Virus record (IMG/VR): IMGVR_UViG_2721755720_000005
Length of the DNA stretch: 40,305 nt
Strand: one strand, 5' to 3'
Source of the DNA: a virus
Lineage: Duplodnaviria > Heunggongvirae > Uroviricota > Caudoviricetes
Position 1 is the first letter of the stretch, and each line of letters starts with the position of its first letter. Shown here piece after piece: positions 36,903 to 37,794 of this stretch. The notes below the pieces were generated by a model, which saw nothing but the letters and a program-made list of their open reading frames with translations, did no database searches and had not been told where the DNA came from. Both the position numbers and the translations under genes were made by a program.

Positions 36903-37103
36903 ATGTATCGAAACATACGGTGCCGACACTGCAATAAGCTACTGGCACGGGCCAGTTTCAGCTATCTGGAAGTCAAATGTCCGCGCTGTAAAACCCTCAA
37001 TCAAATCACATCACCGAGCGCCACAGAGCACCCCACATACACAAGGAAATCCTGTCGTGGGGAACAGAAAGCAAGTCACATCCCGTATCATCAGCACGCC
37101 TGA
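36903..37103 (+). CDS. com: Com-like zinc-finger translational activator of mom
   Basis: 66 aa; [13 protein letters not shown]...EVKCPRCK matches remembered Mu Com IRCKNCNKLLFKA...EIRCPRCK; SD AGGAGG 10 nt upstream. Confidence 0.85.
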
Positions 37104-37794
37104 ACTTATTCACTATAACGACAATATCGTCGGTTATGGTTCCCGTGAATTACGGGTTGAGACAATAAGTTGCTGGCTGGCCCGACTGGTCATCGTCAAT
37201 AAACATTACAGCCACCGTTTCGTAAATAATTCATACCTTCATCTGGGAATATTTTCAGAACGGGAGCTGGTTGGCGTAATGCAATGGGGCTATGCCCTTA
37301 ATCCAAACAGTGGTGCACGCGTCGTAACGGGCACGCAGAACCGCGAATATATGGAGCTTAACCGGTTATGGCTGCATGACTGTATGCCGAGAAACTCCGA
37401 ATCAAGGGCCATCAGTTACGCACTCAAACTAATCAGACAGCTTTACCCGCAGGTACAGTGGGTTCAGTCGTTTGCAGATGAGCGTTGTGGCTGTCTTGGT
37501 GTCGTGTACCAGGCAAGCAATTTTGATTATGTAGGCAGCCATGAAACAACATTCTATGAACTTGATGGTGAGTGGTATCACGAGATTTGCAGGAATACCA
37601 TCAAACGAGGTGGACAGAGAGGTGAACATCTGAGGGCTAATATAGACAGAGCCAGTGTTCATAAATTCCGCCAGTTTCGTTACATCCGGTTTCTGGACAA
37701 GAGAGCCAGAAAACGCCTCAATACAAAGCTATTCAAAGTCCAACCTTACCCAAAACCACAAACAGTTAAAACCGGTTTGAAAGAGAGCGGATGA
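37057..37794 (+). CDS. mom: Mom-like DNA modification protein (start uncertain; GTG at 37057 proposed)
   Basis: Long ORF overlapping the 3-prime end of com in another frame and ending just before the right end; no in-frame ATG near the com overlap; GTG 37057 has AAGGA 9 nt upstream. Confidence 0.7.

Follow-up and report, generated by a model that had tools for sequence, protein, structure and literature searches.

The stretch of viral DNA analysed here (the window; 40,305 nt) contains, as part of a Mu-like transposable prophage, a com-mom operon that in all probability works as its counterpart in phage Mu does, with mom translated from the GUG codon at 37057. The locus shows the com-mom arrangement known from Mu, including the known GUG start, is already annotated in this way in public genomes, and differs from the Mu version in quantitative respects rather than in kind. 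Its elements are the following:

36887-36892, + strand: Shine-Dalgarno sequence of com, AGGAGG, 10 nt 5' of the com ATG at 36903 and 2 nt 5' of the out-of-frame ATG at 36895
36895-36897, + strand: ATG in the mom frame, not a mom start; Shine-Dalgarno spacing 2 nt, with a stop before the GTG in 20 of 31 relatives
36903-37103, + strand: com, 66 aa, translational activator with a CCCC zinc ribbon; ATG 36903, TGA 37101-37103
37016-37032, + strand: predicted Com-binding site GAGCGCCACAGAGCACC, the sole match to the SELEX bipartite motif in the window
37018-37031, + strand: predicted Com hairpin, GCGC (37018-37021) with GCAC (37028-37031), hexaloop CACAGA (37022-37027)
37031-37062, + strand: predicted translation-inhibition hairpin, CCCCAC (37031-37036) with GUGGGG (37057-37062), its 20-nt loop containing the Shine-Dalgarno AAGGA
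37057-37103, + strand: com/mom overlap, 47 nt, mom being in the +1 frame relative to com
37057-37794, + strand: mom, 245 aa, GTG start, stop 37792-37794; Pfam Mom domain at about 37147-37755

The identity of both proteins is unambiguous from Pfam, Mu and the PDB. Com, encoded directly 5' of mom, can be aligned with Mu Com and matches the Pfam family PF10122 (Zn_ribbon_Com; E=2e-12) over residues 1-42, with its cysteines at positions 7, 10, 27 and 30; an earlier note on this DNA had thus been right to call it a clear 66-aa zinc ribbon. A sequence search for a solved Com structure found none at E<=0.01. The mom product matches PF25680 (Mom, adenine methylcarbamoylase; E=1.9e-77) over model positions 1-202 of 202, and the PDB entry 8bv8 with an E-value of 2.4e-123. 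The com coordinates are equivalent in the relatives of this prophage, on which PGAP and other gene callers agree.

The start of Mom

The earlier note took the GTG at 37057, preceded at a distance of 9 nt by AAGGA, for the first credible start of mom, thereby placing the initiation region inside com. Both elements are found as described: the AAGGA at 37043-37047 is a Shine-Dalgarno sequence, and the GTG lies 47 nt within the 3' end of com in the other frame. Homology and comparative analysis both put the start at this codon. The com-mom region shows about 71% DNA identity to those of phages Mu, D108 and SfMu, and in a BLASTP comparison the GTG-started product aligns with GUG-started Mu Mom residue 1 on residue 1, at 78% identity and with a single two-residue gap. 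This alignment, suggested earlier as a means of placing the N-terminus, gives 37057 and neither a position near 36895 nor one beyond 37110. The chain of Mu Mom in 8bv8 (“Methylcarbamoylase mom”) has 232 residues, the fourth of which falls on K4 of the Mu protein as started at the GUG; its length and alignment fit a protein begun at the GUG.

The RefSeq record of Mu (NC_000929) starts mom at an ATG ten codons 5' of the GUG (35877-35909 in that record, 628-660 in our Mu locus L001), which yields 241 aa. This ATG is missing from the window, where the aligned bases are GCG, and is the less well supported of the two Mu starts because many relatives either lack it or have stops that cut it off. At the level of sequence this argues that the GUG start of Mu Mom, with a product of 231 aa, is to be preferred to the longer form. 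UniProt likewise gives 231 aa for Mu Mom.

For a wider comparison, we gathered 21 loci from bacterial genomes and 80 from viral contigs in addition to the annotated E. coli relatives, which together represent 57 distinct com-mom junction sequences. Across these 57 there is only one start candidate shared at a conserved position, located 22-26 codons before a conserved GYGS/GYGC motif; in the window the GTG precedes GYGS by 25 codons. The codon itself varies by lineage, being GTG in the Mu-type and window-type phages, ATG in six loci (L005, L009, L012, L017, L018 and L095) and TTG both in L004 and in the L010 group. Three loci (L008, L016 and L100) have a stop in the mom frame one to four codons 5' of the GTG, and therefore no start further upstream is usable there. 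Public annotation points the same way: in E. coli relatives PGAP starts a 245-aa “Mom family adenine methylcarbamoylation protein” (WP_000528247.1) at the homologous GTG, overlapping a 66-aa Com, and the exact 245-aa translation of 37057-37794 has already been called on 13 public contigs, each time with a 66-aa Com and a 47-nt overlap. The start of mom is hence a non-ATG codon, as had been suspected, but it is no peculiarity of this copy, since both Mu and the public annotation use GUG/GTG too. Together, these comparisons support placing the Mom N-terminus at GTG 37057.

The mom frame offers other starting points on either side of the GTG. As noticed earlier, it is open from well upstream (36784/36811) through to the stop at 37792-37794, and between 36870 and 37279 its only canonical in-frame starts are the ATG at 36895 and the GTG at 37057. 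A Mom begun at this ATG, the sole one in frame before 37279 and one with a strong AGGAGG just 5' of it, would have 299 aa and run through all of com in another frame, a reading that is almost certainly wrong and that we regard as effectively refuted already. The AGGAGG at 36887-36892 leaves a spacing of only 2 nt, as the earlier note had remarked in judging the ATG unusable, and of the 31 close relatives that have the junction sequence of the window, 20 contain a stop between the ATG (at -162) and the GTG; in 19 this is a TAA at a distance of 81 nt from the GTG, and in the remaining one the stop lies 138 nt before it. The TAA stems from GTC>GTA, a silent change in com (Val), whereas the window has TCA at this place, and it is because of this TCA that its upstream frame seems open. 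In view of the stops in these relatives, the long open frame is an accident of this copy. The frame 5' of the GTG moreover lacks protein-level conservation in other lineages, several of which have stops in it, and no gene caller has chosen the ATG at 36895. A start 3' of the overlap, at the near-cognate ATC codons 37087 or 37090, ATT 37108 or ATG 37279, is also very improbable; these codons are in frame, and the Pfam Mom model begins only at about 37147, but the residues encoded by 37057-37147 are conserved at the protein level with Mu and other lineages, none of the downstream candidates is preceded by a Shine-Dalgarno sequence, and a start at ATG 37279 would cost the Pfam domain 44 residues. 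We also considered a +1 frameshift that would fuse Com to Mom, but rejected it: neither a slippery site nor other evidence points to it, and the independent Shine-Dalgarno sequence and GUG are conserved.

Two adjacent predicted hairpins at the junction

In Mu, the GUG start of mom is located in the stem of a translation-inhibition structure (PMC6483171). A matching hairpin is predicted in the window, where both the minimum-free-energy and the centroid fold contain the CCCCAC/GUGGGG stem (-12.6 kcal/mol; z=-2.26), with the GUG start and part of the Shine-Dalgarno sequence paired in silico. Within its loop an inner helix can form between the AGG of the Shine-Dalgarno sequence and CCU at 37051-37053. 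Folding the RNA around the start, a check proposed in the earlier note, thus does yield a hairpin over the GUG; in a 121-nt context, the hairpin nonetheless appears while the energy is no better than that of shuffled sequences (z=0.03), and therefore thermodynamics alone furnishes no evidence. Neither does the bare stem pattern, as CCCAC-N8-24-GTGGG occurs once in the 40 kb against 0.93 expected; being not unusual for a stretch of this length, it owes its significance to position and conservation and not to the hairpin alone.

This conservation was followed through 17 distinct Mu-type and window-type junctions, 13 of which were taken into RNAalifold and pair counts. The CCCAC...GUGGG pairing is kept in all 17, in one of them as CCCAU...GUGGG, with loops of 11-20 nt that each contain a Shine-Dalgarno sequence 7-13 nt before the GUG. 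Over the 13 junction types, the five core pairs of the stem are invariant and hence uninformative either way; since they overlap conserved Com codons (H-P-T) and the first two codons of Mom, their invariance is not cleanly separable from coding constraint. The sixth pair covaries, being UA in seven junction types, CG in five and UG in one.

Mu Com is known to bind a hexaloop hairpin adjoining the inhibition structure, with the recognition motif CC(N)2-3GAG and a loop closed by a C-G pair, and SELEX has given the bipartite motif GAGNNCC(N)2-3GAGNNCC (PMC6483171). On both strands of the 40-kb window, the bipartite motif has a single match, at 37016-37032, where about 0.2 would be expected. The CC(N)3GAG motif (CCACAGAG, 37021-37028) lies in the predicted hexaloop hairpin, which is directly 5' of the CCCCAC/GUGGGG hairpin and abuts it. 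RNAalifold recovers two adjacent hairpins from the 13 junctions, in which 98.3% of the cells are paired, a figure that drops to 23-62% if the partners are shifted by one to three columns. The 4-bp hexaloop hairpin is in register in 16 of the 17 Mu-type and window-type junctions, and three of its four pairs show compensatory changes, a covariation that amounts to few independent events, essentially the Mu-type clade versus the window-type clade. In the window itself the stem of the Com hairpin includes a C·A mismatch, repaired to U-A in the relative L030, and is barely stable at -1.7 kcal/mol; here ViennaRNA favours a register with 2 bp and an 8-nt loop.

By analogy with Mu, we propose that com and mom are cotranscribed and that mom translation would initiate at GUG 37057, within the last 47 nt of com. 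In the free mRNA, the GUGGGG arm would pair with CCCCAC at 37031-37036 and the AGG of the Shine-Dalgarno sequence would be paired inside the loop; with the start codon and these three bases so engaged, ribosomes could not initiate. Com made from the same mRNA would then bind the hairpin and its CC(N)3GAG at 37018-37031, immediately 5' of the inhibitory structure, and its binding would open the latter for synthesis of Mom, the adenine methylcarbamoylase that would shield the phage DNA from restriction. The Com-dependent unmasking that the earlier note had envisaged agrees with the published model for Mu (PMC6483171) and with the presence of matching RNA elements in the window, the binding of Com, the melting of the hairpin and the activation itself being taken over from Mu.

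Alternatively, mom might start at the GTG and be unmasked mainly by the ribosomes that translate com, with Com binding playing a minor part. The whole inhibitory hairpin is contained in com, at 40-70 nt from the com stop, so that these ribosomes would also unwind it, and this copy has a weak Com hairpin stem. Yet Wulczyn, Bölker and Kahmann in 1989 and Hattman et al. in 1991 reportedly found that Com supplied in trans activates Mu mom translation. A Com motif that is conserved and uniquely placed, within a hairpin with compensatory changes, would moreover be needless for passive translational coupling, and Com binding has been reported at the corresponding Mu site (PMC6483171). Such coupling as the main route is therefore improbable, although it may contribute, and unmasking by Com remains the preferred reading.

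The two hairpins meet at one base. C37031, a U in Mu, can pair with G37018 in the Com hairpin or with G37062 as the sixth pair of the inhibitory stem. Across the 13 junction types, this position and the base that opens the Com hairpin form AU (five), GC (five) or GU (three), and it is never mismatched with either alternative partner. Tentatively, this could reflect a conserved one-base competition switch, in which the Com-stabilised hairpin would strip the closing pair from the inhibitory stem, a possibility we consider rather doubtful. The covariation of position 37031 with both partners, which again comes down to a small number of independent evolutionary events, is an element that is only mildly new. 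To the shared scheme the window-type lineage adds the anti-Shine-Dalgarno CCU in its larger loop.

Comparison with Mu and the setting of the prophage

The Mu locus (Mup54/Mup55, NC_000929) has the same gene order, with mom likewise in the +1 frame relative to com, and an overlap of 50 nt as against 47 nt in the window. Its GUG is at the homologous codon, its CCCAC/GUGGG stem is equal, with the Shine-Dalgarno sequence in the loop, and its inhibitory stem is directly adjoined, as in the window, by a hexaloop hairpin carrying CC(N)3GAG; Mu Com is also a CCCC zinc ribbon, and the Mom proteins are similar to the extent given above. The inhibitory loop is 20 nt long in the window, with the inner AGG/CCU helix, but 11 nt in Mu, where folding gives a hairpin of -9.5 kcal/mol compared with -12.6 kcal/mol. 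The sixth stem pair is C-G in the window and U-A in Mu, and the spacing from Shine-Dalgarno sequence to GUG is 9 nt versus 7 nt. The Com hairpin reads GCGC-CACAGA-GCAC, with its C·A mismatch, in contrast to AUGC-CUGCGA-GCAU in Mu. Com has 66 aa in the window and 62 aa in Mu, and the window Mom has a 12-residue C-terminal extension (37756-37791) past the ...FKVQPYPK end of Mu Mom.

Closer relatives are the Mu-like prophages of E. coli, including that of O157:H7 (examples are NZ_CM167690, with WP_001388990.1 and WP_000528247.1; LC727881, “inserted Mu-like phage”), with about 93% identity over 36673-37900 and the same GTG as the PGAP start of mom. The element occurs in 232 of 5426 complete E. coli genomes (about 4%) at 90-99% identity. 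In most of these relatives the mom frame is closed by the TAA 81 nt 5' of the GTG, where the window has TCA, and the insertion sites differ as well. The segment 37021-37068 is identical in all the listed window-type relatives except L030, with one base changed in the Com hairpin, and L035/L036, with one base changed six nt past the GTG.

Transcription of the Mu operon is controlled through a Dam-methylated GATC cluster (the OxyR site) upstream of a C-dependent promoter. Upstream of com in the window, there is a perfect 9-bp inverted repeat with two GATC sites (AATCGATCG-N7-CGATCGATT, 36835-36859), which is homologous to the GATC cluster before the Mu mom promoter but lies 44 nt before the com ATG rather than 70 nt as in Mu. 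The C-site and -10 sequence of Mu have no aligned counterpart upstream of the window com, and a search of the + strand gave no sigma-70-like promoter; in view of these absences and of the spacing of the repeat, the promoter layout of the operon may differ from that of Mu. The gene directly upstream of com is a 201-aa ORF on the minus strand (35977-36582) with a weak zinc-ribbon match below the Pfam cut-off (E=3.7e-4), whereas in Mu the gin invertase precedes com. Downstream of mom, 30 nt past its stop, a 13-nt inverted repeat (GAAAAGCGCCGAT / ATCGGCGTTTTTC, 37825-37871; 92% complementary, 21 nt apart) ends in a T-run and overlaps the first of the GTATCAAA repeats described below, and is a possible terminator of mom.

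The Mu-like prophage has its right end at 37922 (...CGCCGCGCTATA). Four independent insertions are alike as far as this base and diverge beyond it, in agreement with the end annotated in LC727881. Between 37841 and 37922 there are three GTATCAAA repeats (at 37841, 37876 and 37898), which look like transposase-binding sites. In the host flank, 37923-40305, lies the gene of a type I restriction R subunit truncated at its N-terminus (Pfam ResIII, SWI2_SNF2, T1R_D3-like and EcoR124_C); as this gene is interrupted, an anti-restriction phage sits inside hsdR. At the other side, positions 1-420 belong to the early region of the prophage, with a short ORF from ATG 177 that by eye looks Ner-like and a second ORF, starting at 410, that looks transposase-like; the window begins inside this region, and the left end of the prophage lies outside it.

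For annotation, it follows that mom, despite its long open frame, should not be extended to the ATG at 36895. The locus also provides a Com site and an inhibitory hairpin that have diverged naturally from those of Mu, and these could serve as a comparison in studies of Com-RNA binding.
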